Source of the DNA: an archaeon
GTDB lineage: Archaea; B1Sed10-29; WALL01
Direction: 5' to 3'
DNA: 64,000 nucleotides
NCBI GenBank assembly: GCA_042584585.1
Contig: JBHOSQ010000001.1
Coordinates: 58,694-122,693, forward strand
A model generated the notes under the pieces. That model searched no databases. It was not told the DNA's origin and was given only the letters and a program-made list of their open reading frames with translations. Below, one piece after another: positions 786-52,414 of this stretch (within the stretch, counting starts at the first letter, position 1; the number at the start of each line of letters is the position of its first letter). The translations under genes and the position numbers were made by a program.

Positions 786-1073
786 ATGTCTCTTGGAAGT
801 TTTGAGACACGCCTAGTGGCGTCAGCGAAGCTAACATCCATGGAAAAATATGGGTGGGCTTACAACGAAGACTTATTAGTCGTAAAGGGAATGCTGGGTG
901 ACGAAGTCGAAATAATCGACGACGGAACCGGCATAATCAAAATACGCGATAGCCTCGCAGAGTATACAGTGCACATACGTGACTACCAAAAAAAGATTGA
1001 GTCCACCTCCATACCCACTGCGCCGGAGCGCGAGGGCAAGTACATTTCGGTGTGGGACGTCGCGAACCACTAA
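786..1073 (+). CDS. Hypothetical protein (95 aa)
   Basis: TTTATAAA at 741-748 and GGTGGG SD upstream; protein-like composition. Confidence 0.7.
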   Translation: MSLGSFETRLVASAKLTSMEKYGWAYNEDLLVVKGMLGDEVEIIDDGTGIIKIRDSLAEYTVHIRDYQKKIESTSIPTAPEREGKYISVWDVANH

Positions 1074-1084
1074 CCCTTGAGTGC

Positions 1085-7762: not shown

Positions 7763-7800
7763 TGAATAAATTAATGGTGCGCGGGTATAAAAGAATTAGT

Positions 7801-8250
7801 CTACCTGTACTCGTTTTTAATCGCCCAGCTGTTGCCCCGCTTTTCCATGTGCTTGGCAACAAGGAACTTGAAGTCTTCGTGAACGTTCTTGAGCCCCGCG
7901 AGGCCGGGATACTTCCCCAACAGGCGCACCATAAATTCATCCGCCTCTTCAGGAGTGTAATTCCGGGTGAACTTGTAGTACCCACGAACATACGCACCCC
8001 TGCCGCCCTTATCGTTACGGGCTTGGCTGATTGCCTTATTCATAATCTCCTCTTTTGACGGCTCCACCATGGCGTCAGGATGGCCAAACTCCACACAAAA
8101 CGCGTTTTTTCCCTTGACCGCAAAAGTAGAAAACATCCGTGCAAACCCCTTATGCTGCTCGGGGTTCATGCTCTTGAACTTGGAGCCATGCACGCTCTTG
8201 GCGACCGTGTAATAATGCTCCCGCGCCTTCAGCTCTTTTTTGCTAACCAC
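7801..8250 (-). CDS. Basic hypothetical protein (149 aa)
   Basis: GTG start with GGTGGG SD; co-oriented within the cluster. Confidence 0.75.
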   Translation of the reverse strand: MVSKKELKAREHYYTVAKSVHGSKFKSMNPEQHKGFARMFSTFAVKGKNAFCVEFGHPDAMVEPSKEEIMNKAISQARNDKGGRGAYVRGYYKFTRNYTPEEADEFMVRLLGKYPGLAGLKNVHEDFKFLVAKHMEKRGNSWAIKNEYR

Positions 8251-8272
8251 TTATCCCACCAATAAGCACTTG

Positions 8273-9556
8273 CTATAACGGCGACTTAGTTTGCGTGTGC
8301 TTTTTCTTGACCCAGTTCACGACAACGCCGCGCAAGTACTCCCGCTGGTCGCCCCCTTCATAAGCGCCTGGGAGCGAGGACCTCCCGGCCTTTACCACCA
8401 ACCCGTTGAGCATGTTTCTCCGCCGCTCAGCGTCCATGGCAAATCCACCTGCAACGTGGGAGGTGCCAGCCACCTTTTCCTCGTAGAGTGCGCGAATTGC
8501 CTCGTTGTACTTTTCGTCCATGTCCCACTGCTGTGGCGCGATCCCGACCCGCATTTTTTCCTGGGGCTTGCTGATTATCTCCACCAATTCAGGGTGCGGC
8601 TTGGCGCCCTTCATTAGTTCGGGATACGCGAACTCGCGTTTCCCCGTCACCAAGTCCACGAGCGGCTGGTGCTGCTTGTGCTTCTCAATCCATTGCCTCA
8701 AGCCCTTCCTCTTCGCGGTGGCGCGGCTCCCCATGCCCGTTGGGGGATACTGCTTGTTCACCGTGCCCTCGACACCGTCATGGAAAAGGTTAATGAATGT
8801 TTGTGCCGACTTCTTCTTGATGCCCTTGTTGCCTGGGACAAGCGTGAAGTACTCCTGCGCCAGCGCCTCGTCGATATTGGTCGGCTCCAGCTTATCGGCG
8901 GTGGCGGGCTTGGCCTCCTTGGGCTTTGCATCCTTGGCCGGAGCTGGCTTCGGGGGCTTCGGCTTTGCGTTCGCCTGCTTTTCTTTCTCGGGAATCGTGG
9001 GCGGGAGTTCGGGCGCGACAACCAAGTCGTCGTACTCCATCATCAAAGCGTTCCACTTTTCCGCGTGCTTGGGGGTCATGCCCTCAAACATTTCCTTGGC
9101 CTGCTTCATAGAAAAGCCCAGAGTCTCGCTAATGTTTTTCGGGAAAGACAGGGGGTCGTCGAAAATGAACTTTCCGCCGTCCTTGGCGACGCGCTCCATT
9201 TCCACAAGAATCTTGTTGACACCGGCCGTGGCCCGATACTGCCTGGACTCGTGCTTATTCATTATGGTCTTGAACTCGTCCGAAAAAAAGTTTGGCACCA
9301 CATGCTTCAGCCTCTCCAGCTCGGCGTAGGTAAGGCCCCTAAGGCCCTTCTTGAACGCCATGCGGTACTCTCCCCGCGCGCTAGTAATGTTTTTTAGGAG
9401 ATTCACCCGCGTCTTGTGCGAAAGCCGCGGCAAAAGCGAGAGGGCTATCTTCTTTTCGGTGGGAGTAATTTTCTTGTTGAAAAATTCTTTGCCGGCAGCG
9501 TTCAGCTTGTTGGCCAAGCGCGTTTCCTCCGCCTTGCTCCTCTCAACGATAGGCAT
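8273..9556 (-). CDS. Mosaic ORFan with a P/K/A-rich linker
   Basis: 427-aa ORF; start overlaps the ATPase stop (TAATG); shares modules with the 1060-aa and 596-aa proteins. Confidence 0.85.
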   Translation of the reverse strand: MPIVERSKAEETRLANKLNAAGKEFFNKKITPTEKKIALSLLPRLSHKTRVNLLKNITSARGEYRMAFKKGLRGLTYAELERLKHVVPNFFSDEFKTIMNKHESRQYRATAGVNKILVEMERVAKDGGKFIFDDPLSFPKNISETLGFSMKQAKEMFEGMTPKHAEKWNALMMEYDDLVVAPELPPTIPEKEKQANAKPKPPKPAPAKDAKPKEAKPATADKLEPTNIDEALAQEYFTLVPGNKGIKKKSAQTFINLFHDGVEGTVNKQYPPTGMGSRATAKRKGLRQWIEKHKQHQPLVDLVTGKREFAYPELMKGAKPHPELVEIISKPQEKMRVGIAPQQWDMDEKYNEAIRALYEEKVAGTSHVAGGFAMDAERRRNMLNGLVVKAGRSSLPGAYEGGDQREYLRGVVVNWVKKKHTQTKSPL

Positions 9557-11922
9557 TACTTTGCCACCCCTCCATCAATCCCGTCGATGTAAACGTCGCG
9601 GGGGCCCTTCGCGGAAGCGAAAGAAGCGTGGTAGACCGGGCGGTACACAAACGAAATGTCGCGAATCTTTACCTCGCCGAAAACAGTGGGGATGTCGGCG
9701 ACGGATTCCTTCGCCACGCGCGGCGTCGGAACAAACCCGCTCGCCTCGCCCATCACAAACCGCGACTCAAGTGTAGTGTACTCAGGAGTGTTAATCGCCT
9801 GCGGCAAGTCAAACTGCTGCTTCAATGTATACGTGCGGGCGCGGCCGTCGTCCACCGCCACAAGCAACCCGTCCTCAGCCAAGTCCTCCGCGTTCGTGCG
9901 CGCGGTCGTCTCGGTAATGTTCGCGACGCTCGCGATTCCCTTCGCGCTCGCCTGCTTGCCCTTCCGCAAAGCAACAATTATCTTGCGCTTGCTCTTGTTC
10001 ATCGCGGCCAAAGCCCCAACCCCCTTGGTCGAAGCCATCCCGCTCTTGCCAACGCTCAACAACTCGCCGTTCATGCCGTCAACAAAACAAACCGAGCGCT
10101 TGAACCCAGTGCCCTGGTAATAATCATAGTCCACCTTGTAAATCGGCCAGTACTCCAGGCGGAAGTCCTTAAGCGCCTCATCCTCGCCGAACAATCCGAA
10201 GAGCTTGGCCTTGCGCTGCTTCAGCGCACGCGCCTTCGCGCGCTCCTCGTCCAACTCGGCCTTGAACACCAACAAGTTCTCGCCGCTCACTGCCTCAGGA
10301 ATCGGCTCATCCTCCTGGACCTCTTCCGCTGCAACCGTCTCCTGCTCCAGGATTTCCTTGAGCACAAGCTGCTCGTTGTCAACGTCCGCCTCCCCAATCG
10401 CCTTCACGACTTTTTTCGCGGATACTTTCGTGCCGTAGCGCTTGTTGATGGTGCGGGCCAACTGGTCAATCTTCGACAAGTTCACGCGGCCGAAGTCCAC
10501 CAACTGCTTCTTCACCATCTTGATTACTAATCCCTCGACCTGCTCTTCCGACAATGTTTCCTCGAAGTCAACGCTTCGGGTCTCACGCCCCTCGTGCTGC
10601 GAGAACCGCGGGCGCAAGTGAGCCGCGAACACGCGGTTCGTGTGGTCGCTCCTGTCGCCAATCAAGCAGTGGCCGATTGGAAGAGTCTTGATGAACCGAG
10701 AAGAATACTCCTTCGGAATGTCGGCGGGCATTCTCTTGAACACGGCTTTGATGTCGTCGTCAAAAGTCAATTTGTGGCACACCAACAAGTCCAGCTGCGA
10801 CAAGACTTTGGTGTCCAACGCGGACGGCTGCTGCGTAGCCATCACCAAAGAACAGCCGGGCCGGCGGCCCTGCTTCACGTATTCAATCATGGCGTCGCTG
10901 GCCGCGGTCTTTTGCGAGCCAGACGGAATGAGCGTGTGTGCCTCGTCAATGAACAGCCACGTCGGCGGAATCCCTGTCTCGAGCACTTCTTCCATGGAAA
11001 CCGCGAGCCGCTTCATCGCGCTCTTGCGCGTGGCGAGCTTGCGCGCGTTAAGGATTTTTCGCGCGAGGAGGCCGATGACGAGCGCGTTCACTTTTTCGTC
11101 GAGGAACGAAACGTCGATGACCGAGACTTTTCCCTCTTGGCACAAGTCAACGAGCGGAGTTCCGTTCGCCGAAAAGATTCCCCACGACTTTGCCGACTCG
11201 AAACGGGATGTGAGGGCCCTTCTGGAATCGCTCTTGAATCCCTTTGCCTTCGAGACCAGTTCGGCATCAGCGTTAAGGCAGTTGATTATTTCTTCAAGCC
11301 CGTAGTCCGGGTTCGGGTTCACGTGCTTGTTTTCGGTTGTCTTGTAGCCGTTGAACACTTTCTCAAGGGCTTTTTCCAGGAGAAGCCCGGTGGGGGAGAA
11401 GCGGTCGATGTCAAAAGTGATGCACCAGTCGTCGACGTTTAGGTCGGCGGGGCGCAGTGCGTAAGTCTTGTCGTAAGTGTCTTTCGGCAGGGTGTTGCGG
11501 ACGCCGTACGGGACGAACACCCTGGTTTCCGCGACGCCGCGGGGCGCGAGGCCCATGCGAATCAATTCGTCGAGCTCGGTTTCTTCCTGGTTCGGGTACT
11601 TCATGGACCAGTAGATGCCGATGGGGTCGATTATGACTACTGCGACGTTCGGGTTTTTGTAAATCAGTTCTTCGGCGATAACGCCGAGTGTGTATGACTT
11701 GCCGGAGCCTTTGGCACCGCACACGAACACGGTGTGGGGCATCAAGGCGTCCAAATAGATGAATTCGCCGTATTTTTCCTGCTCGGCGACTTTGCCCAGT
11801 AACAAGGCGCCTTCGCGGCCGTACTTGCGGTGCAGGGACTGTGAGCGGCCGACGAACACGCTGCGTCCTGCGGCGTCCTCGAGGGCGTCAAGGCCCATAT
11901 TCACGCGTGGCTTGAACTCCAT
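9556..11922 (-). CDS. HerA/FtsK-superfamily (DUF87-type) ATPase with a C-terminal extension containing an HTH-like segment
   Basis: Walker A GAKGSGKS, Walker B LFIDEAH, GRRPG, MATQQPS; start moved to the MEFKP ATG, with TATA about 25 nt upstream. Confidence 0.9.
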   Translation of the reverse strand: MEFKPRVNMGLDALEDAAGRSVFVGRSQSLHRKYGREGALLLGKVAEQEKYGEFIYLDALMPHTVFVCGAKGSGKSYTLGVIAEELIYKNPNVAVVIIDPIGIYWSMKYPNQEETELDELIRMGLAPRGVAETRVFVPYGVRNTLPKDTYDKTYALRPADLNVDDWCITFDIDRFSPTGLLLEKALEKVFNGYKTTENKHVNPNPDYGLEEIINCLNADAELVSKAKGFKSDSRRALTSRFESAKSWGIFSANGTPLVDLCQEGKVSVIDVSFLDEKVNALVIGLLARKILNARKLATRKSAMKRLAVSMEEVLETGIPPTWLFIDEAHTLIPSGSQKTAASDAMIEYVKQGRRPGCSLVMATQQPSALDTKVLSQLDLLVCHKLTFDDDIKAVFKRMPADIPKEYSSRFIKTLPIGHCLIGDRSDHTNRVFAAHLRPRFSQHEGRETRSVDFEETLSEEQVEGLVIKMVKKQLVDFGRVNLSKIDQLARTINKRYGTKVSAKKVVKAIGEADVDNEQLVLKEILEQETVAAEEVQEDEPIPEAVSGENLLVFKAELDEERAKARALKQRKAKLFGLFGEDEALKDFRLEYWPIYKVDYDYYQGTGFKRSVCFVDGMNGELLSVGKSGMASTKGVGALAAMNKSKRKIIVALRKGKQASAKGIASVANITETTARTNAEDLAEDGLLVAVDDGRARTYTLKQQFDLPQAINTPEYTTLESRFVMGEASGFVPTPRVAKESVADIPTVFGEVKIRDISFVYRPVYHASFASAKGPRDVYIDGIDGGVAK

Positions 11923-12026
11923 GTAGTAGCTAGTTACGGCGGGAGGGTATAAATAGGTAATGAAAAATAGGAGTCCGGGGCGCAGACCGACTTCAATCGG
12001 CAAGGGCCCCGAACAGGTACCTGTTG

Positions 12027-12413
12027 TTATTCTGAAGCCTTTTCGGCTTCTGCGGGAGCCTCTTCCTTGGGCTCCTCGACGGGAGCCTTTTTCTTGGGCT
12101 CCTTGGCGGGTGCCTCTGCAGCGGGCTCCGCCTCGGCTACTTCGGTTGACTCAGCAGCCAGTTCCTTTGCCGTCTCTTTGATGGTCTTCGTGGTTGAAGC
12201 CATTTGGCTGATGGCGTCGGCGAGCTGTTGGGGCAGGTTGTTCTCGTCCGGGAAGCCAATGCCACTCTTGTAGCGCTTGTTCCCGTTCGGGAGGAAGTAC
12301 CCCTTGGACAGCGAGATGAACTCGTTGCCCTCAATCTCTTTTCGTGCAACTTCCAGGAAGTTGTTGTTTCCGTATTTTATTTCAGTCGACTTTATAGTTG
12401 TGTATTCAACCAT
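12027..12413 (-). CDS. PC4/whirly-like putative ssDNA-binding protein with an acidic disordered tail
   Basis: FLEVARKEIEGNEFISLSKGYF...RYKSGIGFP resembles the PC4 fold pattern; AGGTG SD. Confidence 0.65.
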   Translation of the reverse strand: MVEYTTIKSTEIKYGNNNFLEVARKEIEGNEFISLSKGYFLPNGNKRYKSGIGFPDENNLPQQLADAISQMASTTKTIKETAKELAAESTEVAEAEPAAEAPAKEPKKKAPVEEPKEEAPAEAEKASE

Positions 12414-12502
12414 TTCTAACACCTGGTGTGGTTGTGCCCATGATTCTAGTGAAAAAGTATAAAAAGATAACCTTATATTCTCGGCAATGAATAACTTCCG
12501 AT

Positions 12503-13519
12503 ATGTCCATTTTCGACAAGAAGGTTGTATTGATTCGGGACGAGCAGCCGTTACTGGAGTACTTCATTCCCGAGAACGTGTCGCGCCGCGACGGCCAGAA
12601 GCAGGAATTGGCTGAGTGCCTTAGGCCTGTGACCGTGAACCGGAAGCCACGGAACGCGTTTTTGTACGGGCCCTGCGGCACGGGAAAGACATTGATGGTT
12701 CAGTGGATGCTCCGGGAACTGGAGGGGCGCACCTCACGCGCGAGGACGGCTTATGTCAATTGCTGGAAGCGGAACACGACGCACGCCGCGCTCACCGAAA
12801 TACTGAGCCAACTCGACATTTATGTTAACTACCGGCAGGCCGCGACTGACCTGCTGAAATTGCTGGAGAAAGAGGCGGCGAAGAAACAGGTCGTTGTTTG
12901 CCTGGACGAAGTCGACTCGATGGAGACGAGTGAGTTGCTGTACGACCTAAGCCGCTCGGGCATCGGAATGGTGATGATATCGAACGACGCGTACGCAATG
13001 ATGGACATTGACCCGAGGATTAAGAGCTCGGTCAACGCGGAAGGCATCGAGTTCCCGGCGTACACGGACGAAGAAGTGCTTGATATTGTGAAGGAGCGCG
13101 CGAAGTACGGAATTGTTCCCGGCGCGGTCAGGGAAAACGACTTGAAGATGATTGCGCGCCTGGCCGACGGCGACGCGCGGATTGCGATTGAAACGCTGAG
13201 GCGCGCGGCGCTTGTGGCAGAGGACAAGGAGCAAACCAAAATCACTTCGAGCGAGGTCAAGAAAGCGTTCGGCAGCACGGGAATGCTGCGGAAGGACGAG
13301 GCCTTGAAAAAGCTGAACGAGCACGAGAAGGTTTTGTATTCGCTGATGGAGAAACAAAAAAACGTGAGCACAAAAGAGTTGTGGGAGAAGTACGTCAAGG
13401 CGGACAAAAAGCCGGCGAGCCAAAGGAGCTACCGGAATTACATGAACCACTTGGCACGGATTGGTTTGATTAGGGCTAGGGGAGAATTGACTGGGAGAGA
13501 ATACGAGCTAGTCGAGTGA
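12503..13519 (+). CDS. cdc6: Orc1/Cdc6-family replication initiator
   Basis: Walker A GPCGTGKT, YVNC, Walker B LDEVD, FPAYT, GDARIAI, C-terminal winged helix. Confidence 0.93.
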   Translation: MSIFDKKVVLIRDEQPLLEYFIPENVSRRDGQKQELAECLRPVTVNRKPRNAFLYGPCGTGKTLMVQWMLRELEGRTSRARTAYVNCWKRNTTHAALTEILSQLDIYVNYRQAATDLLKLLEKEAAKKQVVVCLDEVDSMETSELLYDLSRSGIGMVMISNDAYAMMDIDPRIKSSVNAEGIEFPAYTDEEVLDIVKERAKYGIVPGAVRENDLKMIARLADGDARIAIETLRRAALVAEDKEQTKITSSEVKKAFGSTGMLRKDEALKKLNEHEKVLYSLMEKQKNVSTKELWEKYVKADKKPASQRSYRNYMNHLARIGLIRARGELTGREYELVE

Positions 13520-14242
13520 CGGCACGTGCCCGTCCACGGGCGGCAACTGCTCTTCGACGGGGGGCAATTCCTCGTCGACGGGTGGCAGAATGTTGATGTA
13601 GCTGTTGTGCTTTTCTTCTTTTGTTTCGCTTTGGTGCATCCATCCAGTCATCGCCTGGATTACGCGGGTGCTGTCCCACGCGAACGGTTCGTCCTTGTCG
13701 TTGTCCATGAGCAGGTTAAGGTGCAGGCCCTTCCCCGGGTCATGCTCCTGGACGAAGTTAAAATAAAACACGTAGCTCGCGCCGAACAGGCACACGATGA
13801 CCGCGGAGAACCAGAAAAAGAACCACGACTTTTGGCTGGAGTTCATCACGATGAAGCCAGTTAAGGCGCTGGTGTCCTCCACCGGTGTTGCTGTGGAGAC
13901 GACCGATGCCACCTCTGGGGCTTCGGGAACAGAGACGTCGTGCACCACGACGTATTCGTTGTATCCGTCGGCTGTCGCACGGAACGCATAGTATTCGCCC
14001 GCCTCAGGCGTAAGGAAAAAGTGTGTGCTTCCGTCGTCGCCGGTCACTCCCTTCTTCAGGAAGCCGTTGTGGGTGTGGACCTCGACTAGCGCGCCGGCCA
14101 GCGGTGCGCCGGTGTCGGCGTCAGTGAGTGCGATTACGTAGCCCTGTTCCTCGCCAGCGACTAGTGTGGGCGAGTGCTCGACAGCGATGAGACTCGCCGA
14201 AGCTGCTACTAGCATGAGCACGAAAAGGAACACCTGCTTCAT
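13508..14242 (-). CDS. Surface membrane protein (signal peptide, Ig/carboxypeptidase-regulatory-like domain, TM helix, LPPV-repeat tail)
   Basis: MKQVFLFVLMLVAASA; LTDADTGAPLAGALV; hydrophobic WFFFWFS helix; LPPVDEE/LPPVEEQ/LPPVDGH tail. Confidence 0.8.
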   Translation of the reverse strand: MKQVFLFVLMLVAASASLIAVEHSPTLVAGEEQGYVIALTDADTGAPLAGALVEVHTHNGFLKKGVTGDDGSTHFFLTPEAGEYYAFRATADGYNEYVVVHDVSVPEAPEVASVVSTATPVEDTSALTGFIVMNSSQKSWFFFWFSAVIVCLFGASYVFYFNFVQEHDPGKGLHLNLLMDNDKDEPFAWDSTRVIQAMTGWMHQSETKEEKHNSYINILPPVDEELPPVEEQLPPVDGHVPSLD

Positions 14243-14331
14243 AGTACTCACTGTAGAGTTACAACACACAGTATATAAAAAGTTTTTGCTTAAACGGGCT
14301 GTTTAACGGGGAATTCCGCTCAAAACCAGTT

Positions 14332-15183
14332 CTACGGTACAAAGTGCTCTTTAATCTGGTCGCGGTGGTGGCTTTTTTCGCACGGCTTGCACCTGACCCA
14401 GTCATCGTCGTGGGTTGCATTCATAAACGTCCCGCAGTCCGGGCACGGATAACTGGTCTTCATCCCCCTCTCCAACTCTTTGGGCGCTTTTTTCGTCTTC
14501 CCCTTTTCCTTGAGCTCGGGGAATATCTTTTTGCGGTTTTCCATCATGTGCGAGGCAAGCTTGGGTGGGTCCATCTTGTCCTTTAATTGTTCCCGGGTCA
14601 GGGTCAGCGGGAGTGCCTGTGCCTCTTCGTTGAAGACGCCGTTGCCCTTGATGATGCCCACAGCCATACTCATCATCGGGTCCATCGCCATGTTGGGGTC
14701 GTGTATTGAGCGCGTGAACTCTTCCACTACGGTTCTTACGGCTAGCCCCAAATCAAACGTGAGCGGAAGGCCCCTCTCCACTCTTTTGTTCACGTGGACG
14801 TGGGCAAGTATCTTCGCGGTGCGCCTATCCATCCCCGCTCGGTCCTCGTCCCTTCCGTCTCTGTGGATTGCGGCGGCGAGATAGTGTGTGACGCTCTCAG
14901 GCGTCTTATCATTGAATTCGTGGACTAGTTTGTCGGCAACCGGCTGCAACTCAAAGTCAAGCGGGAGATCGTTATCGATTACGTCTTTCAAGTGCATGTG
15001 GGCGAGCAGTTTCGCCACGTAAGAGTCCACCCTCTCCCCTTTCCTGATTTCCACTGCGAGCTTGTTTTTGAGTATGTCAACTTGCCTCTTGAGCTTGGCG
15101 TCTTCCAGCTTGTTGGCCCGAGCCTCTTCTTTTTCTTTTGCTTGGGCCTCTTCCAGCTCTTCGGCCTCGCTCTTGCGCGCCAT
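14332..15183 (-). CDS. ORFan with an internal duplication and a C-terminal zinc ribbon
   Basis: VAKLLAHMHL..LPLDFEL vs TAKILAHVHV..LPLTFDL; CPDC...CKPC. Confidence 0.8.
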   Translation of the reverse strand: MARKSEAEELEEAQAKEKEEARANKLEDAKLKRQVDILKNKLAVEIRKGERVDSYVAKLLAHMHLKDVIDNDLPLDFELQPVADKLVHEFNDKTPESVTHYLAAAIHRDGRDEDRAGMDRRTAKILAHVHVNKRVERGLPLTFDLGLAVRTVVEEFTRSIHDPNMAMDPMMSMAVGIIKGNGVFNEEAQALPLTLTREQLKDKMDPPKLASHMMENRKKIFPELKEKGKTKKAPKELERGMKTSYPCPDCGTFMNATHDDDWVRCKPCEKSHHRDQIKEHFVP

Positions 15184-15224
15184 GGCAATAATTAGGGATT
15201 CAACAGATAAAAGCGTGTCGGCTC

Positions 15225-15389
15225 CTAAAGGATGTACGACATCAAGGCCTCGGCGACCAAAAAGAACACGGCGATTCCGAGCACGAGCTCGGGCGTAATC
15301 TGAAGCCCGCCGCCGTCAGTATCAAAGTATCGCATGAGCCCCGCGGAACTCATTGGGCCACTGACCGGCTCTCCTTTGTTGACTTTCAT
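15225..15389 (-). CDS. secG: Preprotein translocase subunit Sec61beta (54 aa, absent from the ORF track)
   Basis: Hand translation MKVNKGEPVSGPMSSAGLMRYFDTDGGGLQITPELVLGIAVFFLVAEALMSYIL; SSAGLMRYF signature; AGGTGG SD. Confidence 0.93.
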   Translation of the reverse strand: MKVNKGEPVSGPMSSAGLMRYFDTDGGGLQITPELVLGIAVFFLVAEALMSYIL

Positions 15390-15413
15390 AGGAACCACCT
15401 TTGCACTATTGCA

Positions 15414-17123
15414 CTATTTAAAGATTCTCCTGAGCTGGAAGCCATGCTTCTTCGAAATATAGGCAAACCCGCCGAGAATCAACAGCAGGACTATGCCCGC
15501 GACCACCACAAGGAACACCAACGCCCCCACAATCAGCCACATCGTCGTGTCCATCTCAATGTAAGGCAGCCACCCAACGCCGCCCTTGAACCCCACAAAG
15601 TAAGTCACCGTCCCGTTCACCTCGGTCTTGTAGACCTTGGCGACTCCCTTCAGCTGCTCATCCGGAGAAATCCCCAGCTCCGTCGCCACAGCCTCCTCCA
15701 CAAAAATGTACCTGGCCTCACAATCAGTCACGCCAGCCGCACAAAACGACACGTTGCCGTCAAGCGTCTTGTTCGCCAAAACAAACTGGTCCTCAAGGTC
15801 CTTCGCAGTGTAAATCCCCGCCGACAAGTCAAGCTCCGCCGTCGCCGGCACGCCCTCCTCAGAAGACTCAATCAAGGCAACAAGCGCGTCAAGCCCCTCC
15901 TGCTCTTCCTCGGTCAGCAAGCGGTAAAGCGAGCACTCGTGCGTGCACCCGTGCTCCTCGTCAACGCCCATAACGCCGTCGCACTCCTCCGCGCCGACCA
16001 CAAGGTTGTCCCCGCAAATCGTGGACATGGTCTTGCAGTCCGAAGAGCACGCGAACCCAGTGACCGTCGCGTTGCCGTCACACACCTCGTCCGCGACAAT
16101 CATGTTGTCACCGCACACCGGCAGTTCCTCGGCACAAGTCGACGAGCAAGTGAACCCAGTCGTCACAATCGAGCCGTCACACAATTCGTCGCCGACCAAA
16201 ATGTTGTCGCCGCAAGTGTTCTTGAGGTTGCACGACGAAGTGCACGTCCAGCCCACACTGACGCCGTCTTCGACGTCACACTCCTCACTCCCCTCCATGA
16301 TGCCGTCGCCGCAGTACACCGGCTTGGCTATGCGGGTGTATGCCCCGCCGTCGTAGTCGTAAATGTAGTCAATCGGCAGCGGAATGGTCTCGCTCGTGAC
16401 CATGCGGAAGTTCTTAATCTCCCACGTGTACGGGTAGTCCGCGAACGCGTCCACCGCCATAAGCATCAAAGTCGTCTTGTTCGTGTTGCACTCTCCGCCG
16501 TCCATGTTCAAACGGATTTTTTTCCAGCCGTCGTCCTGGAACGCCTCCGCAGTAACCTCATTCACCTTGACCGCGCTGCCGAAGCTCTGGGCGTCATAAA
16601 CCCAGCCCGCCGCGTTTTCTTCCGACGAGCAGTAAAACCCATACGCGTTCTCGGGGTCGCCCATCCAGTTGCACTCCATGTGCATGTGGCACAGCGAGCG
16701 CTTCTTGTCGTAAAATGATAATGAAGTGACACTAATCGGGATGTCGGTCATGGTCGCCTCGTTGTAGTCGTACGCGAAAGCGAACAGGTTCGGGCCGTCG
16801 TTGTCCGTCTGTTCCCCGCTGCCGAAGTTATGGTTGTAGTCCAGGTCAACCCCCGGCGCGTTCACGCGCACGTCGAACTCAAGGTCGTAGCTCGCGGTCG
16901 TCGGGGTGTCAAACACAGTGGTTAGCTTCCAGAACGCGCGTGACTTGGCCGAAGAGTCCAGGGTCAGGCGCAGCTCGCCGTCATAGTTGAGCGTGGGAGT
17001 GATTTCGTCCGGCCCCGAGCCGAATATGTTGGACGAATATATCCACGTGCCCTCCGTCAAGTCGCTTTCAGCTGCCAAAGCCATGGCAGACAGCAACAAT
17101 ACAGCGAGAAGAATCCTTTTCAT
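15414..17123 (-). CDS. Surface protein with four Myxococcus-type cysteine-rich (DUF4215-like) repeats and a C-terminal TM anchor
   Basis: Signal peptide MKRILLAVLLLSAMALA; CGDGIMEGSEECD, CGDNILVGDELCD, CGDNMIVADEVCD, CGDNLVVGAEECD. Confidence 0.85.
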   Translation of the reverse strand: MKRILLAVLLLSAMALAAESDLTEGTWIYSSNIFGSGPDEITPTLNYDGELRLTLDSSAKSRAFWKLTTVFDTPTTASYDLEFDVRVNAPGVDLDYNHNFGSGEQTDNDGPNLFAFAYDYNEATMTDIPISVTSLSFYDKKRSLCHMHMECNWMGDPENAYGFYCSSEENAAGWVYDAQSFGSAVKVNEVTAEAFQDDGWKKIRLNMDGGECNTNKTTLMLMAVDAFADYPYTWEIKNFRMVTSETIPLPIDYIYDYDGGAYTRIAKPVYCGDGIMEGSEECDVEDGVSVGWTCTSSCNLKNTCGDNILVGDELCDGSIVTTGFTCSSTCAEELPVCGDNMIVADEVCDGNATVTGFACSSDCKTMSTICGDNLVVGAEECDGVMGVDEEHGCTHECSLYRLLTEEEQEGLDALVALIESSEEGVPATAELDLSAGIYTAKDLEDQFVLANKTLDGNVSFCAAGVTDCEARYIFVEEAVATELGISPDEQLKGVAKVYKTEVNGTVTYFVGFKGGVGWLPYIEMDTTMWLIVGALVFLVVVAGIVLLLILGGFAYISKKHGFQLRRIFK

Positions 17124-46823: not shown

Positions 46824-47738
46824 GTGATAGTCGACGTCATATTCCTCGTCGCCGGGTTGGGCTTGCTCGTCTTCTCGAGCCGCCAGGCCGTGGACTCGGC
46901 GATTAAGCTGGCGACCTCCGCGAAGGTCGCGCCGCTTATCATCGGCATCGTGATTCTCGCGTTCGGCACGTCACTCCCCGAAATAGCGATTTCTGTTGAC
47001 TCCGCAGTTGCGGGCCACGGCGACATCAACGTGGGCAACTCGTTCGGGTCACTGCTGTCACAAATCACTTTGATTCTGGGGCTCGTCGTCCTGGTGGGCG
47101 GCACAATCCACCTCAAAAGAAACAACGTGCTCGTGCTCGGGGGCTGCGCGATAGTGGCAGCCATACTCGCCGTGCTCGTGGTCGAGAAGGGAATGATTAC
47201 GCGCGTGGACGGGCTTTTGCTCTTTGTGGCTTATGCGGTGCTGCTGTTCTTTTCGTACCGCTACCTCAAGCTGGAGAAACAAATACACAAGGTAGACCAC
47301 GAGCAGCTAAAGCACTTGGGCATCATCCTGCTTGGGCTCATTGGCGTTGGAATCGGCGCACACTTCACGATTAATTCGGTGATATCCTTGTCTGCCGCGT
47401 TCGCGCTGCCGGAATACTTAATCAGCTTCTTTGCGGTTGGGCTGGGGACTTCGCTGCCGGAACTTGTTGTGGACTTGGTCGCGGTGAGCAAGAAGCAGTA
47501 CGGCCTTGCGGTTGGAAACTTGTTGGGTAGCAACCTCATGGACGCGACAATCGGGCTGGGGGCTGGGCCGTTGATTGCGCCGCACGTCGTGGGGAGCGGG
47601 ATTGCCACGGCGACTGGGTGGTACGTCATTTTTGCTTCGGCGGTTGTAGTGCTTTTGTTCGCATTGCGGGAAAAGCTGGACCGCAAGGCAGCGATTGTTT
47701 TGTTGGCGCTTTACTTCACGGCGTTCCTTATTTTATGA
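46824..47738 (+). CDS. Sodium:calcium antiporter (CaCA/YrbG family)
   Basis: Two GTSLPE...GN..GS alpha repeats. Confidence 0.92.
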   Translation: MIVDVIFLVAGLGLLVFSSRQAVDSAIKLATSAKVAPLIIGIVILAFGTSLPEIAISVDSAVAGHGDINVGNSFGSLLSQITLILGLVVLVGGTIHLKRNNVLVLGGCAIVAAILAVLVVEKGMITRVDGLLLFVAYAVLLFFSYRYLKLEKQIHKVDHEQLKHLGIILLGLIGVGIGAHFTINSVISLSAAFALPEYLISFFAVGLGTSLPELVVDLVAVSKKQYGLAVGNLLGSNLMDATIGLGAGPLIAPHVVGSGIATATGWYVIFASAVVVLLFALREKLDRKAAIVLLALYFTAFLIL

Positions 47739-48399
47739 GCGCGACGAGGAGCACGAGCACTGGCTGGTGCAGCAAATAAATCAAGAGCGAGTTTTTTCCT
47801 AGGAAAGCGAGTTGTTTTATTCCAATTGCGTTGCCTAGCTCGGGCAGAACAAACGTTCTTTTGTTTGCGTACAGCTTCTGCCCCGCGTAAACGCCGAGCA
47901 TCATCACTCCGAGCCACGGCAACAGGGGGTAGTAGTCGAAGGTGTAGAGCCCGGTTGGTGCGAGGCCGAGCCACAGCAGCCACGGGAAACTGAACGCCAT
48001 TGTTTGTAGCCACGCGCCGGCGGCGATTGCCGCGATTCCGACGGGCAAGGCGTATTTCTTGAGGTAATTGGAAACAATTATCCCGAGGCCGATGAAGTGG
48101 AGCACCCCGAACCAAATCGTGGCTTGGGGAAACGCGACATAAGTAATAATAGTAATTATAATTCCCCACGCGAAGATGGTCGCGCCGCGGTGAAGGGGAT
48201 TGCTTTTGCTGAGCGTCAGGGCGATGCCGGCGAGGAAGATGAATGTTGCACCGATGGCGCGGGGAATCCAGAGCCAAAGCGCGTTGTCCAGGACATTGAT
48301 TCCCGCAAAGTAGTTTAAGTCGAACAAGAAATGGAATAATATCATGGCGACGACTGCGAGTCCGCGCATTGCGTCGATTTCCCAGAAACGGTTTTTCAT
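47728..48399 (-). CDS. DUF1624 / heparan-alpha-glucosaminide N-acetyltransferase-like membrane protein
   Basis: RFWEIDAMRG, FGVLHFIG, DYYPLLPW, LGKNSLLIYLLHQP. Confidence 0.9.
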   Translation of the reverse strand: MKNRFWEIDAMRGLAVVAMILFHFLFDLNYFAGINVLDNALWLWIPRAIGATFIFLAGIALTLSKSNPLHRGATIFAWGIIITIITYVAFPQATIWFGVLHFIGLGIIVSNYLKKYALPVGIAAIAAGAWLQTMAFSFPWLLWLGLAPTGLYTFDYYPLLPWLGVMMLGVYAGQKLYANKRTFVLPELGNAIGIKQLAFLGKNSLLIYLLHQPVLVLLVALIK

Positions 48400-48412
48400 G
48401 GCGGCCGGTTGA

Positions 48413-48610
48413 CTACTGTTTATCTAATTTCTCGATTGCTAACTTCACTAACACCACAGTCACCCCTAAACAAAGCAAGGGGATTCCCACTTTAACAAAC
48501 AGGGGAAGGTCATCACTTATCAGAACCAAATAAATCGGAGTCAATACCAACATAGGAGAAGGTAATATCAATAGAACTACTCCAAGTTTTTTAAAGAGGT
48601 CTTCCATCAC
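48413..48610 (-). CDS. Small two-TM protein (unit 5 of the tRNA-Ser array)
   Basis: 65 aa hydrophobic; AGGTG SD and TTTATTAA TATA; AT-rich. Confidence 0.7.
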   Translation of the reverse strand: MMEDLFKKLGVVLLILPSPMLVLTPIYLVLISDDLPLFVKVGIPLLCLGVTVVLVKLAIEKLDKQ

Positions 48611-48661
48611 CTAAACTATCAAGAACAGAGTTAATAAACTCATTAGAACTGTTTAGAGGGT

Positions 48662-48680
48662 TAGAGCGCTGGGAGGGAAT
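48662..48680 (-). repeat. Degenerate tRNA 3'-end copy R4
   Basis: Minus strand ATTCCCTCCCAGCGCTCTA; shares CAGCGCTC with R2. Confidence 0.55.
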
Positions 48681-48686
48681 CCATCA

Positions 48687-48899
48687 TTATTCAAGGAACA
48701 TGATTTTCATCCATCTGGCTCCGCAAATGATGGCTAATATAGCGTACCAATACCAGTCGATTGTGAGCACGAACGCTAGAAAGTCCGGCCACAACGTTAT
48801 TACTGCCAACGTGGCAAATATTGCCGCAAATTGAGCGAGTTTGATGTCATACCACTTAACTTTTTTCAGGATTTTTTTTGACCATTTTTCAAAACACAT
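48687..48899 (-). CDS. Small two-TM protein (unit 4)
   Basis: 70 aa, KKVKWYDIKL; AGGTGA SD; AT-rich. Confidence 0.75.
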   Translation of the reverse strand: MCFEKWSKKILKKVKWYDIKLAQFAAIFATLAVITLWPDFLAFVLTIDWYWYAILAIICGARWMKIMFLE

Positions 48900-48957
48900 T
48901 CCAAGTCACCTAAGTCCACACTACACGTTCAACAAATAAAAAACTAAGCCAAAAGGT

Positions 48958-48974
48958 TGGAGCGCGGGGGGACT
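48958..48974 (-). repeat. Degenerate tRNA 3'-end copy R3
   Basis: Minus strand AGTCCCCCCGCGCTCCA; shares GCGCTCCA with R2. Confidence 0.6.
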
Positions 48975-49006
48975 AATTTTTATAATTGTTAGTTGTTTAT
49001 GGTAAC

Positions 49007-49375
49007 ATGAAGATTTTGCTCGTAATCGCTTTGTTATTTCTGGGGGGTTGCGTGAGTCCAGAAACAAGTAATGGAGTAGTGCCCAGTGAATGCGCTGAAT
49101 ACGAAGGCGACGTTTGTGGCTTATTTGATTGTATGGTCGAGCAATGCTGGTGTAAAGCGGGCCCGGATACTGTGTACGACACCGATTCAGCCGTACTAAA
49201 CGAAGAAGACGCCATGCGCGCCGTGACAGGCTACGTTTCTGAAGAGTACAACGTTGAACGGGCAGTACAACTAAACAACGCGTTCTACAACGTGTTTACC
49301 AAAGTAAATGGTGACGAAGAAGTGTTTACTGTTTCCTACGACGGCAAAATCCTCAAGACAGTATGCGGCGTTTAA
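49007..49375 (+). CDS. Cys-rich putative lipoprotein (unit 3)
   Basis: MKILLVIALLFLGGC lipobox-like signal; TTTTTATAA TATA about 25 nt upstream. Confidence 0.8.
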   Translation: MKILLVIALLFLGGCVSPETSNGVVPSECAEYEGDVCGLFDCMVEQCWCKAGPDTVYDTDSAVLNEEDAMRAVTGYVSEEYNVERAVQLNNAFYNVFTKVNGDEEVFTVSYDGKILKTVCGV

Positions 49376-49399
49376 TCACGGGAGAAGAACCATACAAAC

Positions 49400-49421
49400 T
49401 GGAGCGCTGCGGGGGAGAGTT
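49400..49421 (-). repeat. tRNA 3'-end copy R2
   Basis: GCGCTGCGGGGGAGAGTT (49404-49421, + strand) is identical to 50045-50062. Confidence 0.85.
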
Positions 49422-49444
49422 ATTAAATCGGTTTAGATAGCCGG

Positions 49445-50005
49445 TTATTTCAACATCCCAAACCGAGTGTTTTTTGCTGTCATTTTGATGAAATTCAATA
49501 GGCTTTTCTGAAACATCTCAGAGCCATGGCGTCTCTGACTTTCAATATACGCTATGCGTATCCTTTTGTAGTAGTCTGGGAATGCTTGGAAGTTTTTCCA
49601 CACTTGCTTGTCCGCCTTAAGCTCTTTGAGGACATCCGAAGCAATGACTAGTTTCTCTTTTGATTGACCGAATCCTTTCGGGAGGGTTTTTAATCCAGCT
49701 GCAGTCATCCTTTTTTTCTTAATCAGCCTGCGGGCGTGTTCTTTGTTCATCTCCGAAAACGCACTACCCGGTCTTCTTGGAGTGAATCTTTGTGCGAATC
49801 TGGTTTCATCCACTTTCTTGACAATGCCATCTATCCAGCCATAACAAATCGCTTCCTCAACAGCATCGATATAAGCAATTCTAGGTTTGCCACTGGCTTT
49901 CCTGTAGTAAATCAGCCAAATCTCATTTTCTTTTTTGTGGTTCTTCGCGAGCCATGAACGCCACGCTTTTCGGTCAACCACATAAAGAGTTTTACCTAAT
50001 TCCAT
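49445..50005 (-). CDS. YdeI/OmpD-associated family protein (unit 2)
   Basis: WRSWLAKNH, AVEEAICYGWIDG, QRFTPRRPGS. Confidence 0.92.
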   Translation of the reverse strand: MELGKTLYVVDRKAWRSWLAKNHKKENEIWLIYYRKASGKPRIAYIDAVEEAICYGWIDGIVKKVDETRFAQRFTPRRPGSAFSEMNKEHARRLIKKKRMTAAGLKTLPKGFGQSKEKLVIASDVLKELKADKQVWKNFQAFPDYYKRIRIAYIESQRRHGSEMFQKSLLNFIKMTAKNTRFGMLK

Positions 50006-50042
50006 GTGTACATAGTTGAAACTGAATTGAACTATAAAAGTA

Positions 50043-50065
50043 TGGCGCTGCGGGGGAGAGTTGAA
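50043..50065 (-). repeat. tRNA 3'-end copy R1 (T loop to CCA)
   Basis: Minus strand TTCAACT-CTCCC-CCGCAGC-G-CCA; 18 of 23 positions match the 3' end of the resident tRNA-Ser. Confidence 0.88.
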
Positions 50066-50081
50066 GCCTTTTTGAAGTAAG

Positions 50082-50480
50082 CTATGGGATAACCCCGTCT
50101 ATTGCACCCTCAGCGCACGTCCACTCATCAAGAACTGCAGTGTTCGTTATGAAACCATCAGCAAAACATCGAACCAAGGGTTTGTCAACACACACTTTTG
50201 CTGCTGCAGCATCGCAGGGGTCACCATAAACCCCAATAAAGAACCAGTATTCGCACGTTTCATCAGTGCGTTTGCCGTGATGTTCCATCAATTTGTACAT
50301 AACACACGCGGCTTCCGCGACTGTACTGGCTTCATATTCAGTGAGTGGAAGATCCACGTCCCAGACCTCAAAATTATCATCGTACCCCCCAATTACCTCA
50401 AACTCCGTTGAAAATGGCTCATCCAAGCACCCAACTAGCAAGGCTAGTAATACAATTGAAAGAAGAGCCCATTGTTTCAT
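50082..50480 (-). CDS. Putative lipoprotein (unit 1)
   Basis: MKQWALLSIVLLALLVGC signal; several Cys; AT-rich. Confidence 0.8.
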   Translation of the reverse strand: MKQWALLSIVLLALLVGCLDEPFSTEFEVIGGYDDNFEVWDVDLPLTEYEASTVAEAACVMYKLMEHHGKRTDETCEYWFFIGVYGDPCDAAAAKVCVDKPLVRCFADGFITNTAVLDEWTCAEGAIDGVIP

Positions 50481-50514
50481 ACTGGCTTCAAATCATCCCA
50501 AGAATAAAAGAGTA

Positions 50515-50600
50515 TGGCGCGAGGGGGGAGACTCGAACTCCCGTGCCCAAATGGACAGTGACTTAGCAGGCCACCGCAATAGCCGCTATGCGACCCCCGC
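50515..50600 (-). tRNA. tRNA-Ser(GCT), CCA encoded
   Basis: Acceptor GCGGGGG/CCCTCGC, anticodon arm GTGGC-CT-GCT-AA-GTCAC, long variable arm TGTCC-ATTT-GGGCA, T arm GGGAG-TTCGAGT-CTCCC, G discriminator. Confidence 0.96.
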
Positions 50601-50677
50601 ACACCAAGTAGGCCAACAAGAAATAATGATAAGCGTGGCCTGCTGAGTGTATTTTGCGTGGCGGGGTTTAAAAGCGT

Positions 50678-52108
50678 TTACTTGCCGAGGTCCACCAAAA
50701 CGTGGTGCAAGTCCTTTTTGTCGATTCTCACACTGAACACACGCCCTTTTTCCCCGAAAGCCCCGCGTATGTCCCTTAACGGCGAGCTGACGAGCCCCCA
50801 TCGCGCTTTAAAGTCCGGCTTCAGCATGCCAACAACTTTTTGCAGCGCGGCCTTCACCAAAACGGGGTGCTCGGAAGCCATGCCCAACATCTTCGGGGAA
50901 AACTCCACGTGCGCCAAGGGGTGGTCCGGGGATACGTGCTGCTTGTTGAGCCACTTGTACAGCGCCGTCTCGTAAAACTTTGACTTTTGCTTGTTGAACT
51001 CGCTCGACTCCCTCTTGAGCGCGGGAATGTACCCCAAGAAAACATTCTTTCCTTCTTCCCCACCCAATACACTGGCGTCACAATAAACATAGTAATGGTT
51101 CTGGGACTGCTTGCGCTTCGCGTCAATCCCCTGCATCTCGTTGGGCTTCTTGTTTTCTACCGGCAGCAAATCCGTAGACACAAAAAGGCCCTCCGCGATT
51201 TTGTTGGCAAGCTCGGGGTCGAACCCCTTGAGCAAGTCCATTGGCTCTGGTTTTGGCTCGGGCTTTGGCCTGGACTTCGCGGATTTTTTCTTCGCAATCA
51301 TCCGCCGGATGAGCGCATTCTTCTTGGCTTGTTCGTGTGGGCTCCTCTTCGTGATTTCTCCGGAAGCCGCAGCCCATACCCCGGACTTACGCCCCTCTTC
51401 CTGCTCTTGTTTTCTCTTCTCTTCCCTGAAGCGCGCTTCCTTTTCTTCTTGGGCCTTTTTCCTTTTTTCCTTGGCCTGCCGCTTGGCTTCCTCTTCCCGT
51501 CTCTTGGCATTGGCAAAATCGCCAATCTCTGACTTCAGCTTTACCAGTTCTGCGTGCTCGAACTCGGCCTGGTCCTCGTCCACGCCTTGTTGTTGACGGG
51601 TCTTCAAGTAAACTGGCTTTCTTCCACGCTCAGCCACTACCGCATAAAGCCGTTCAAGATACTCGGAATCCATCTGGTTGAAGTCCAAAGAGGCCACGTG
51701 TTCCTTCGCGTTCTTCTGCGCCGCCTCCAGCCGCTCTTCTTCCAATGCCTTTTCTTTCTCGGCCTTCGCGAGCCATTCTTTTTCGCGCTCTTGGCGGAGC
51801 CGCTCTTTTTCTGCCTCGGCCTTTTTCCGTTCCTGCTGGTTCCAGTCCCGCATTAAATCCGAGAATACATCCCACTTCGCCTCCAGCAGCGACTGGGATA
51901 CATCGCCATAAGTCTCGCCCATCCACGCGTCGAACTCATGGCGCATCAGTCCCTCGGCAACGCGCTCATCGAGCTCGGGTAGCGAATGCAGCGCCTTGCG
52001 TGCCTGCTGCTTGCGCTCTTCAGGAGAAAACTTGAGCTTGAACCCTTTTTTCTTTTTCTTCTTTTTCTTGAGCTTGGGCGCCTCTGGCACACCTGGCTTT
52101 TCGGCCAT
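50678..52108 (-). CDS. K/E-rich coiled-coil ORFan with an N-terminal poly-Lys stretch
   Basis: Start at MAEKPG (the longer ORF overlaps the SRP RNA); KLKKKKKKKKGF. Confidence 0.8.
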   Translation of the reverse strand: MAEKPGVPEAPKLKKKKKKKKGFKLKFSPEERKQQARKALHSLPELDERVAEGLMRHEFDAWMGETYGDVSQSLLEAKWDVFSDLMRDWNQQERKKAEAEKERLRQEREKEWLAKAEKEKALEEERLEAAQKNAKEHVASLDFNQMDSEYLERLYAVVAERGRKPVYLKTRQQQGVDEDQAEFEHAELVKLKSEIGDFANAKRREEEAKRQAKEKRKKAQEEKEARFREEKRKQEQEEGRKSGVWAAASGEITKRSPHEQAKKNALIRRMIAKKKSAKSRPKPEPKPEPMDLLKGFDPELANKIAEGLFVSTDLLPVENKKPNEMQGIDAKRKQSQNHYYVYCDASVLGGEEGKNVFLGYIPALKRESSEFNKQKSKFYETALYKWLNKQHVSPDHPLAHVEFSPKMLGMASEHPVLVKAALQKVVGMLKPDFKARWGLVSSPLRDIRGAFGEKGRVFSVRIDKKDLHHVLVDLGK

Positions 52109-52146
52109 GAACAAAACTAGGGAGTAATAGAATAAATGGTTTGGGG

Positions 52147-52414
52147 TGACGAGCATCCGCAATCGAACACGAAGCCTTTGCTGACCGAACCCTCACGACA
52201 CCTCAACTCTGCGACCCACAAAGCGCGCAGGTACATGTTACGGCTGCTCGGTTCCCCGCCTCGCCGGGTTAGCATAATACAAACGCCAATGCGGACAGAG
52301 CGTCGACAGTGGCACAAGGAGCCAACGAAAACGCCGAAGCCCTCAAGCGGCATTCACCCCCCCTAAAGCAGGTTTGGAGTACAGGGGACTGCTGACCCCC
52401 CGGCTAGCTCGCCA
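52147..52414 (-). ncRNA. ffs: Signal recognition particle (7S) RNA
   Basis: Helix 1 UGGCGAGC/GCUCGUCA; Alu domain with UGUA and an AGCAG/CUGCU loop-loop pair; helix 8 GGC-GAGG-CGG-GGAA-CCG-AGCA-GCC at 52241-52266; TATA about 23 nt upstream. Confidence 0.93.

Follow-up and report, generated by a model that had tools for sequence, protein, structure and literature searches.

What process has lined up single genes behind one serine tRNA gene of an archaeon, each divided from the next by a short copy of that tRNA's own 3' end? The question is raised by a 64,000-nucleotide (nt) stretch of archaeal DNA (GenBank assembly GCA_042584585.1, contig JBHOSQ010000001.1, positions 58,694 to 122,693; hereafter the window), in which a 2.2-kb AT-rich block lies between tRNA-Ser(GCT) and a gene for an HGSNAT-like membrane protein. 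The original prediction, made from the letters of the window, had read the block as an integron-like, chronologically ordered capture array of minimal cassettes. We find that it is a known kind of gene-capture hot spot of unusually miniature form, holding five foreign single-gene blocks, and we consider it likely that it is a tRNA-seeded integration hot spot, built by serial target-restoring insertion by classical tyrosine integrases. The genome that carries the window (G000) is a 1.02-Mb assembly, 84% complete. Thirty relatives were searched with the 4.4-kb locus and the loci were then read; G001 and G002 are congeners of G000, G003 belongs to another genus of the same family, and G004 and G005 are further family members.

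Five intervals follow one another on the minus strand 3' of tRNA-Ser(GCT), and each holds one open reading frame (ORF) of at least 65 amino acids (aa), in the order 132, 186, 129 (on the opposite strand), 70 and 65 aa. The sequences of the dividing repeats, R1 to R4 (Table 1), are as first quoted. They are four co-oriented copies of the tRNA tail, that is, direct repeats of the 3' part of the tRNA with the intact gene at one end, and the start-to-start spacing along the tRNA and the repeats is 472, 641, about 444 and 296 bp. GC content is 0.39-0.48 over positions 48350-50150, compared with 0.50-0.62 in the flanks and 0.50-0.58 per contig, which bears out the described AT-richness of the block. 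The layout as a whole (tRNA-Ser, R1 to R4, one ORF per interval and the GC dip) was present as predicted and lies far beyond chance. The exact 18-mer said to be shared by R1 and R2 was also confirmed; it has two matches in the window at up to three mismatches where 0.07 are expected, 0 of 100 shuffles reached two, and R1 and R2 are its only exact copies in the whole genome.

R3 and R4 were assessed with 22-mers taken from the tRNA-Ser(GCT) ends of relatives and run against both strands of the whole genome. With up to three edits the G002 22-mer found two places, R3 and the true end of tRNA-Ser(GGA); with up to four edits it found four, namely R3, R4, tRNA-Ser(GGA) and one other. The G003 22-mer, with up to three edits, found R3, tRNA-Ser(GGA) and the end of tRNA-Leu(TAG). 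Because the 22-mers of relatives find R3 and R4 at so few places in the genome, we regard both as real. A loose pattern of a C-run followed by GCGC occurs at 0.06 per kb and strand genome-wide and matches R1, R2 and R3 within 1.6 kb 3' of the tRNA, on the tRNA's strand. Searching IMG/VR for a 14-mer from the R1/R2 core yielded at least 120 stretches with a single match, as expected by chance. These results bear on the suggestion that the repeats are not recombination scars but a regulatory element used in common, either a terminator or a promoter, or else are similar by chance. The trailer part, which is AACCCTTTT-like, is indeed common after G000 genes (21 matches of a 15-mer at up to two edits), but R1 and R2 agree with the T-stem, acceptor and discriminator of a relative's tRNA at every position compared, the matches are near-unique across the genome, the copies are all co-oriented with the tRNA, and the same layout is found in four relatives. 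We therefore give this suggestion hardly any credence.

What the repeats copy became clear from the tRNA-Ser(GCT) genes of five family members, compared over 13 positions (the 3' strand of the T-stem, the 3' strand of the acceptor and the discriminator). All four repeats agree best with the allele of a relative, not with their own tRNA (Table 1), and R3 is in addition the exact complement of the present 5' acceptor strand GCGGGGG, which in the living tRNA faces 3' CCCTCGC with a G4-U69 pair. The live 5' acceptor strands are GCGGGGG in G000 and G003, GCTGCGG in G001, GCTGGGG in G002 and G005, and GCCGGGG in G004; tRNA-Ser(GCT) in the family thus differs by compensated acceptor pairs, while the tRNA body is 91-96% identical. 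At the level of sequence this shows that each repeat corresponds to the live acceptor-stem allele of a relative and is not merely a product of decay. The predicted increase of decay with distance from the tRNA was only partly right; the repeats are not simply worn copies of their own tRNA.

The ends of the repeats also differ in their trailers. CCA is encoded by tRNA-Ser(GCT), as in 3 of the 39 tRNA genes of G000 (Ser-GCT, Leu-TAG and Asn-GTT). The other tRNA-Ser genes of G000 have the discriminator followed by a CTCAACCCTTTTT-type trailer without CCA, and the trailers of R3 and R4 are of this native type. As a separate observation, the string GCGCCATACT after the acceptor is common to Ser-GCT, R1 and Asn-GTT, which hints that these three ends derive from incoming elements.

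Table 1 Features of the tRNA-Ser(GCT) locus, in order along the minus strand
Feature	Positions	Strand	Description and basis	Best-matching allele	Match to own tRNA
494-aa ORF	50678-52162	minus	K/E-rich; upstream flank; no Pfam family		
tRNA-Ser(GCT)	50515-50600	minus	Seed (attB) of the array; ARAGORN and Rfam tRNA, 48.4 bits		
Unit 1	50082-50480	minus	132-aa lipobox protein; ORF list, no Pfam match		
R1	50043-50065	minus	T-loop remnant, T-stem, acceptor, discriminator, CCA	G001, 13/13	10/13
Unit 2	49445-50005	minus	186-aa YdeI/OmdA-family protein; Pfam OmdA/YdeI		
Right arm of unit 2 (type B arm)	49422-49446	minus	Contains CCGGCTAT; BLAST and sequence comparison		
R2	49400-49421	minus	Tail copy without CCA	G001, 13/13	10/13
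Unit 3	48986-49375	plus	129-aa lipobox protein; ORF list, no Pfam match		
R3	48955-48974	minus	Acceptor and discriminator, native-type trailer; T-stem lost	G003, 8/8 (acceptor and discriminator)	7/8 (same positions)
Unit 4	48687-48899	minus	70-aa ORF, putative gene; two hydrophobic stretches; no Pfam family		
R4	48658-48680	minus	Tail copy with native no-CCA trailer	G002/G005, 11/13	9/13
Unit 5	48413-48610	minus	65-aa ORF; two hydrophobic stretches; no Pfam family (homologue search by Pfam only)		
HGSNAT_cat acyltransferase-like membrane protein	47728-48399	minus	Downstream flank and conserved anchor; Pfam; 76% nt identity in G002		

In the relatives the locus differs by whole units with junctions at the repeats, as had been anticipated. 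G002 has the same flanks and, between them, 4.1 kb of other cargo with four tail copies; this cargo encodes an archaeal ATPase with DUF234, a 2-thiouracil-desulfurase-like protein, a membrane protein and a Fic protein. The last G002 tail copy, which bears the native trailer, is found about 50 nt 5' of the HGSNAT start; this gives the ancestral junction between tRNA and flank. In G003 an orthologue of the unit 1 protein lies between the same two repeats, with homology that starts at the tail copy, ends right after R1 and reaches 83% mean column identity in the alignment; an extra gene-less unit of 166 bp is found between the tRNA and the lipoprotein unit, and a ParE-type pair beyond. Contig C28 of G001 carries five co-oriented tail copies with core genes after them, and its units measure about 133, 216, 606 (a ParE toxin-antitoxin pair) and 2093 bp (Fic and a second pair). 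G005 shows one tail copy 77 nt after the tRNA end, just before the contig end. Tail copies were found in G000 and in four of the five other family members (G001, G002, G003 and G005; G004 lay outside the copy scan). Nine more distant relatives with tRNA-Ser(GCT) had no convincing copy in about 5-9 kb on the 3' side, and three matches with 3-4 mismatches in G017 were taken as chance. The GC dip, the loci of G002 and G003 and the patchy cargo agree in that the inserted DNA is foreign and variable between relatives, with breakpoints at the repeats.

Integrases of the expected kind were found in the ladders of the relatives. PF00589 was matched in 10 of the 31 genomes, including three of the five other family members (3 of 6 family genomes when G000 is counted). 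In G001, an integrase ORF (PF00589 and PF02899; Phage_int_SAM and Phage_integrase) begins 41 nt beyond tRNA-Ser(GCT), shares its strand and is cut by the contig end. A second ladder with three tail copies stands behind tRNA-Thr(CGT) of G002 (G002:C12:68000-87999, 6873-16500). It consists of units of 2.6 kb, 0.73 kb (a single isochorismatase gene) and, distally, 6.2 kb; the last begins with a 389-aa tyrosine integrase and also carries a 982-aa subtilisin-like protein. Two of these three tail copies share a conserved arm, GGCTCTAYAGCCGTACGA. The G001 and G002 integrases are 44% identical over 226 aa, the G005 integrase is 84% identical to that of G002, and the G002 integrase had no relative among the viral contigs of IMG/VR. 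The tail copies, together with integrases inside such ladders in G001 and G002, support the proposal that these are tRNA 3'-end duplications of the tyrosine-integrase type.

On the reading of serial integration, DNA circles with a copy of the tRNA tail (attP) would have inserted one after another. The enzyme would be a classical tyrosine integrase, with a SAM-like N-domain and a catalytic domain, and the crossover would fall in the T-stem/T-loop part of the tRNA. With each insertion, the incoming DNA would replace the acceptor 3' strand and the trailer of the tRNA, and the previous tail and the earlier cargo would be displaced away from the tRNA. R1 to R4 would then be displaced tails, and the newest unit would be the one next to the tRNA. 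The chronological order proposed at the outset is plausible, given that the distal copies have the native no-CCA trailer and that the last copy of G002 is so close to the start of the flank gene. What carries this reading is directly visible: the repeats are tRNA tails and correspond to live alleles of relatives, the locus varies by repeat-bounded units, and integrases occur in the ladders of relatives.

Several results weigh against serial integration or complicate it. A tyrosine recombinase was found neither in the window nor elsewhere in the 84%-complete assembly, by PF00589 or by tblastn with the integrases of both relatives (best E value 0.011, over 20 aa), so the Xer/Int gene that had been expected elsewhere in the genome did not turn up. 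A search of G003 and G004 with the G002 integrase protein and with PF00589 was negative as well. In G001, the contig with the array (C28) has no physical link to the contig with the tRNA and the integrase (C33). By the ORF list, neither remnants of an integrase nor other pseudogene debris can be seen in the units; a model of pure erosion would predict some. Gene-less units made of multi-copy modules, described below, imply that at least some units were born small. Furthermore, the tail alleles of the ladder could not all have paired with one 5' acceptor strand, so that extra steps are needed, either a tolerated mismatch followed by a compensatory change or the import of an array segment. Strain- or read-level evidence of insertion or excision was not obtained either: a metagenome scan with the HGSNAT flank protein returned 18 loci, the best with 37% aa identity, and no close relative, and for a 3.5-kb stretch of the locus no sequencing run was listed. 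Because no integrase was found in G000, the array there is probably a fossil.

The import of array segments leads to another explanation, assembly or reshuffling of the array by homologous recombination with DNA of relatives, for which the conserved tRNA body and flank, or else the tail copies, would be anchors and under which the unit order would be no simple chronology. The ladder combines three different acceptor alleles (alpha-prime, beta, beta, alpha, gamma along its length). G000 has its tRNA allele and its first unit in common with G003, a member of another genus; the congeners G001 and G002 carry other alleles. Exchange of modules by homologous recombination between tandemly integrated archaeal elements has moreover been described (PMC8371274). 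On the other side, the shared unit is 77% identical by BLAST and 83% by alignment, not clearly above the 67-78% of core genes, and tail copies of about 20 nt are short anchors. We judge this explanation unlikely. We also considered and rejected the idea that the lipoprotein unit had recently passed horizontally between G000 and G003, since its identity is not clearly above that of the core genes.

A further attempt to account for allele switching, a two-sided ladder with 5'-end tRNA fragments upstream, was dropped; such fragments were absent from G000, G001, G002, G003 and G005 and occurred in G004 only. There, tRNA-Ser(GCT) (G004:C16:1-2200, 968-1200, minus strand) has a 56-nt intron, and a second copy of the first 15 or so bases of the tRNA, with 10 nt of leader, lies about 75 nt upstream, a mirror image of the 3' ladders.

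How the small units themselves originated is a separate matter. With close to an even chance, the gene-bearing units are what remains, without an integrase, of small elements such as the one that still adjoins the tRNA in G001. That they were born minimal and inserted in trans seems to us a possibility of lower weight, and the remaining probability falls to a mixed origin. Insertion of minimal units in trans corresponds to the cassette system of the original prediction, in which such units (one gene, its promoter and a short recombination end) would be inserted or excised singly by a recombinase encoded elsewhere, with the tRNA tail acting as attI. All five G000 units have exactly one intact ORF, very short spacers and no debris, and tail-bounded units with a single gene or operon also occur in G001 (606 bp), G002 (isochorismatase, 0.73 kb) and G003. 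The restriction of integrases to half of the family genomes is also in line with supply in trans.

Further material for cassettes comes from units that hold no gene. Units of this kind, 77-216 bp long, are flanked by tails in four relatives (G001, G002, G003 and G005), and G000 itself has them behind three further tRNA genes (C2:114400-119100 and C11:12900-15000). Their G000 representatives comprise an exact 20-nt tail duplicate 185 nt after tRNA-Arg(TCG), an exact 18-nt duplicate 156 nt after tRNA-Ser(TGA) and a copy with three mismatches 72 nt after tRNA-Val(CAC). All three inserts end in a two-hairpin module, with agreement at 39 of 39 nt for two of the sites, and this module is dispersed over G000 with compensatory changes in its stems; three stretches with modules gave tRNAs only in an Rfam search, with no match for the module. 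The module also stands just ahead of a tail copy in G001, as does a related module in G002. Similarly, the first 85 nt of the 166-bp G003 unit recur at eight other places in G003 and once in G002. Since the gene-less units are built from multi-copy modules, we regard them as made of mobile modules and not as debris. A hairpin of the same GCTGAGTTTCAGC type is found in G002 (C5:7000-15500, about 2130-2152), with its end 1 nt ahead of the point where tRNA-Ser(GCT) begins. Hairpin modules can thus adjoin the 5' end of a tRNA gene and not just a tail copy.

The arms beside the tails give a more ambiguous picture. The arm of about 25 nt just 5' of R2 recurs before three of the five G001 copies and once in G009 (84-96% identity), where the orphan copy on contig C1 has no ydeI adjoining it. 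Its 8-mer CCGGCTAT occurs 21 times in G000 (2.03 Mb, both strands). It stands 17 nt before the core at R2 and, inverted, 16 nt after the core in G001, in the latter case between the tRNA and the integrase gene, on the attL side. From its sequence, this symmetric layout would resemble integrase-binding sites around a crossover. The G001 integrase element is framed by a pair of inverted arm motifs, of which the ydeI unit has the right-hand 8-mer only, and this one-sidedness speaks against cassettes. So does the right arm that the integrase-less G002 units share with the integrase-bearing unit of the same ladder, as deletion derivatives would, as well as the fact that no identical gene-bearing unit was seen at two sites and that no excision product, circle or empty site was seen. 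Taken together, we hold the cassette system to be a tentative option, one that deserves attention without being the expected outcome.

Membership in the integrons proper, as the term integron-like might suggest, did not hold up. A genuine integron, or a cluster of attC sites lacking an integron integrase (CALIN), would have cassettes with folded attC sites and an IntI-type integrase. The array does consist of small, mostly single-gene units, and archaeal integrons and attC clusters without IntI have been published (PMC9668308). Nevertheless, none of the four junctions folded better than its shuffles on either strand tested: folds of 71 nt gave z values of -0.04, 0.07, -1.10 and 1.21 on the minus strand, and of -0.01 and 0.45 on the plus strand for R1 and R2. 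Hairpin ends of the attC type were thus not detected by folding against shuffles, the comparison used here in place of an attC covariance model. An IntI with attI and Pc was not found, as PF00589 had no match in the 84%-complete G000. The repeat is the tail of the adjacent tRNA and no imperfect palindrome, each unit seems by eye to have a TATA-like box of its own, and the integrases of relatives have a SAM-like N-domain and lie at the tRNA-proximal end of their elements. We consider a genuine integron highly improbable. The hairpin modules were also examined as attC sites and rejected: an inverse-core-like GCCTAAC is present, and the core-like end is by eye not conserved.

Serial integration at a tRNA gene, the reading we prefer, has parallels among known systems. 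Cis-mobilizable elements (CIMEs), known beside ICESt1 and ICESt3 of Streptococcus thermophilus, are integrase-less stretches of DNA bounded by att sites, which lie in tandem with an autonomous element, or replace it, at the same tRNA-type site. Their mobilisation by the integrase of a neighbour or of an incoming element was proposed and has been shown experimentally. The G000 units may be alike: they are integrase-less and tail-bounded, and an integrase element that shares an arm 8-mer with the R2 arm stands at the same tRNA in G001, but the ydeI unit has one arm only and the G001 contigs are unlinked. CIMEs differ in being bacterial, kilobases long and linked to conjugation.

The same serial-integration model has been published for the tycheposon-built islands of Prochlorococcus (10.1101/2020.12.28.424599). 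By layout, these islands are alike in the streamlined genome, in the tRNA gene that serves as seed, in newcomers that displace older elements distally, in degenerated remnants and scattered partial tRNAs, and in integrases that are rarer than islands. The present case differs in that the host is an archaeon, the units have one gene and 0.3-0.65 kb (77 bp to 6.2 kb in relatives), no integrase was found in G000, the integrase family is presumably another one and several acceptor-stem alleles lie in the ladder. Among archaea, 'gene capture' by tRNA-targeting integrases has been described (She et al. 2001, 2004; Redder et al. 2009, via PMC8371274). It shares with our locus the tyrosine integrase acting at a tRNA gene, the duplication of part of the tRNA as attL and attR, captured genes that stay after loss of the integrase, and tandem integration at one locus. 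The cases treated in the review come from Sulfolobales, Thermococcales and haloarchaea, and their elements span several to tens of kb, in contrast to the ladder of single-gene units here; the word 'DPANN' is absent from the review text. No paper describing single-gene tRNA ladders in DPANN archaea was found, subscription papers and supplements lying outside the search. Integrons and CALINs (Ghaly et al. 2022, PMC9668308) are alike in outcome, with ordered small gene units beside a fixed insertion point and arrays often without a nearby integrase. Unlike them, the array has no attC fold, IntI or attI/Pc, and its repeat is the end of the target gene, restored at each insertion.

The cargo agrees with capture of foreign genes that are patchily distributed, as had been proposed; besides the GC dip, YdeI was found in one of the 30 relatives and the 129-aa protein in none. 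The single YdeI, in G009, is a pseudogene with two in-frame TAG codons. A YdeI paralogue with 38% identity is encoded on contig C10 of G000, and neither it nor the G009 homologue (contig C47) has a tRNA or an arm nearby. The 129-aa protein has two metagenome homologues (59% and 53% identity), and its translation probably begins with the ATG at 49007, for a product of 122 aa. For the 132-aa protein, a set of 5.8 billion proteins contains three homologues (94%, 60% and 55% identity), the closest of them encoded on a metagenome contig of 2,953 bp. The homologue search for the 70-aa ORF gave none. The predicted enrichment in envelope proteins found support: judging from their sequences, which had no match in Pfam, four of the five products look like envelope proteins, two having lipobox signal peptides and two being small with two hydrophobic helices. 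TATA-like, T-rich boxes were read by eye about 26 and 31 nt 5' of the first two ATGs. Between unit 5 and the HGSNAT-like flank gene no repeat is present.

Alignment of the lipoprotein gene of G000 with that of G003 (window 49960-50545 against G003 locus 2850-3420) gave an uneven picture. Identity exceeds 90% at the signal-peptide end, in the C-terminal third and in both untranslated ends, and the middle of the gene is strongly diverged. Either diversifying selection on a surface protein or mosaic recombination within it would fit such a distribution.

DPANN archaea, the putative label for G000, have tiny genomes and few recognised routes of gene gain. Repeated insertion at a tRNA tail is a concrete route of this kind, which supplies G000 with envelope proteins and its relatives with toxin-antitoxin, Fic and ATPase genes. 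The locus goes beyond the textbook case in three respects: units go down to one gene or none, integrases are found in about half of the family genomes, and the ladder keeps earlier acceptor-stem alleles of an essential tRNA, which makes the rewriting of tRNA ends by mobile elements testable. We also put forward, as a speculation we think rather unlikely to hold in full, that the family may run a capture process analogous to integrons, in which the tRNA tail is the fixed point and cassettes with short conserved arms, holding a single gene or even none, are inserted and shuffled by SAM-domain integrases that reside elsewhere, on rare autonomous elements. If so, each insertion would overwrite the 3' acceptor strand of an essential single-copy tRNA and thereby drive the compensated turnover of acceptor stems seen between congeners (GCGGGGG, GCTGCGG, GCTGGGG, GCCGGGG). 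Were cassettes mobilised in trans, the system would be a functional integron analogue using a different recombination site.

Some minor features of the surroundings remain to be mentioned. An Rfam search of the island returned tRNAs only. An inverted 14-nt copy (13/14) of the tRNA anticodon-arm sequence (window 50561-50574 and 50635-50648) lies about 35-48 nt 5' of the tRNA start and could be due to chance. The 3' end of the 494-aa ORF upstream and the spacer before the tRNA are kept in G002, where the counterpart at the same place has 399 aa. On the downstream side, the 13 nt that separate the 65-aa ORF from the HGSNAT start (48400-48412) include TCAACCGGCC, and the same 10 nt start the arm before the last G001 tail copy; this may be the stump of a deleted fifth junction.

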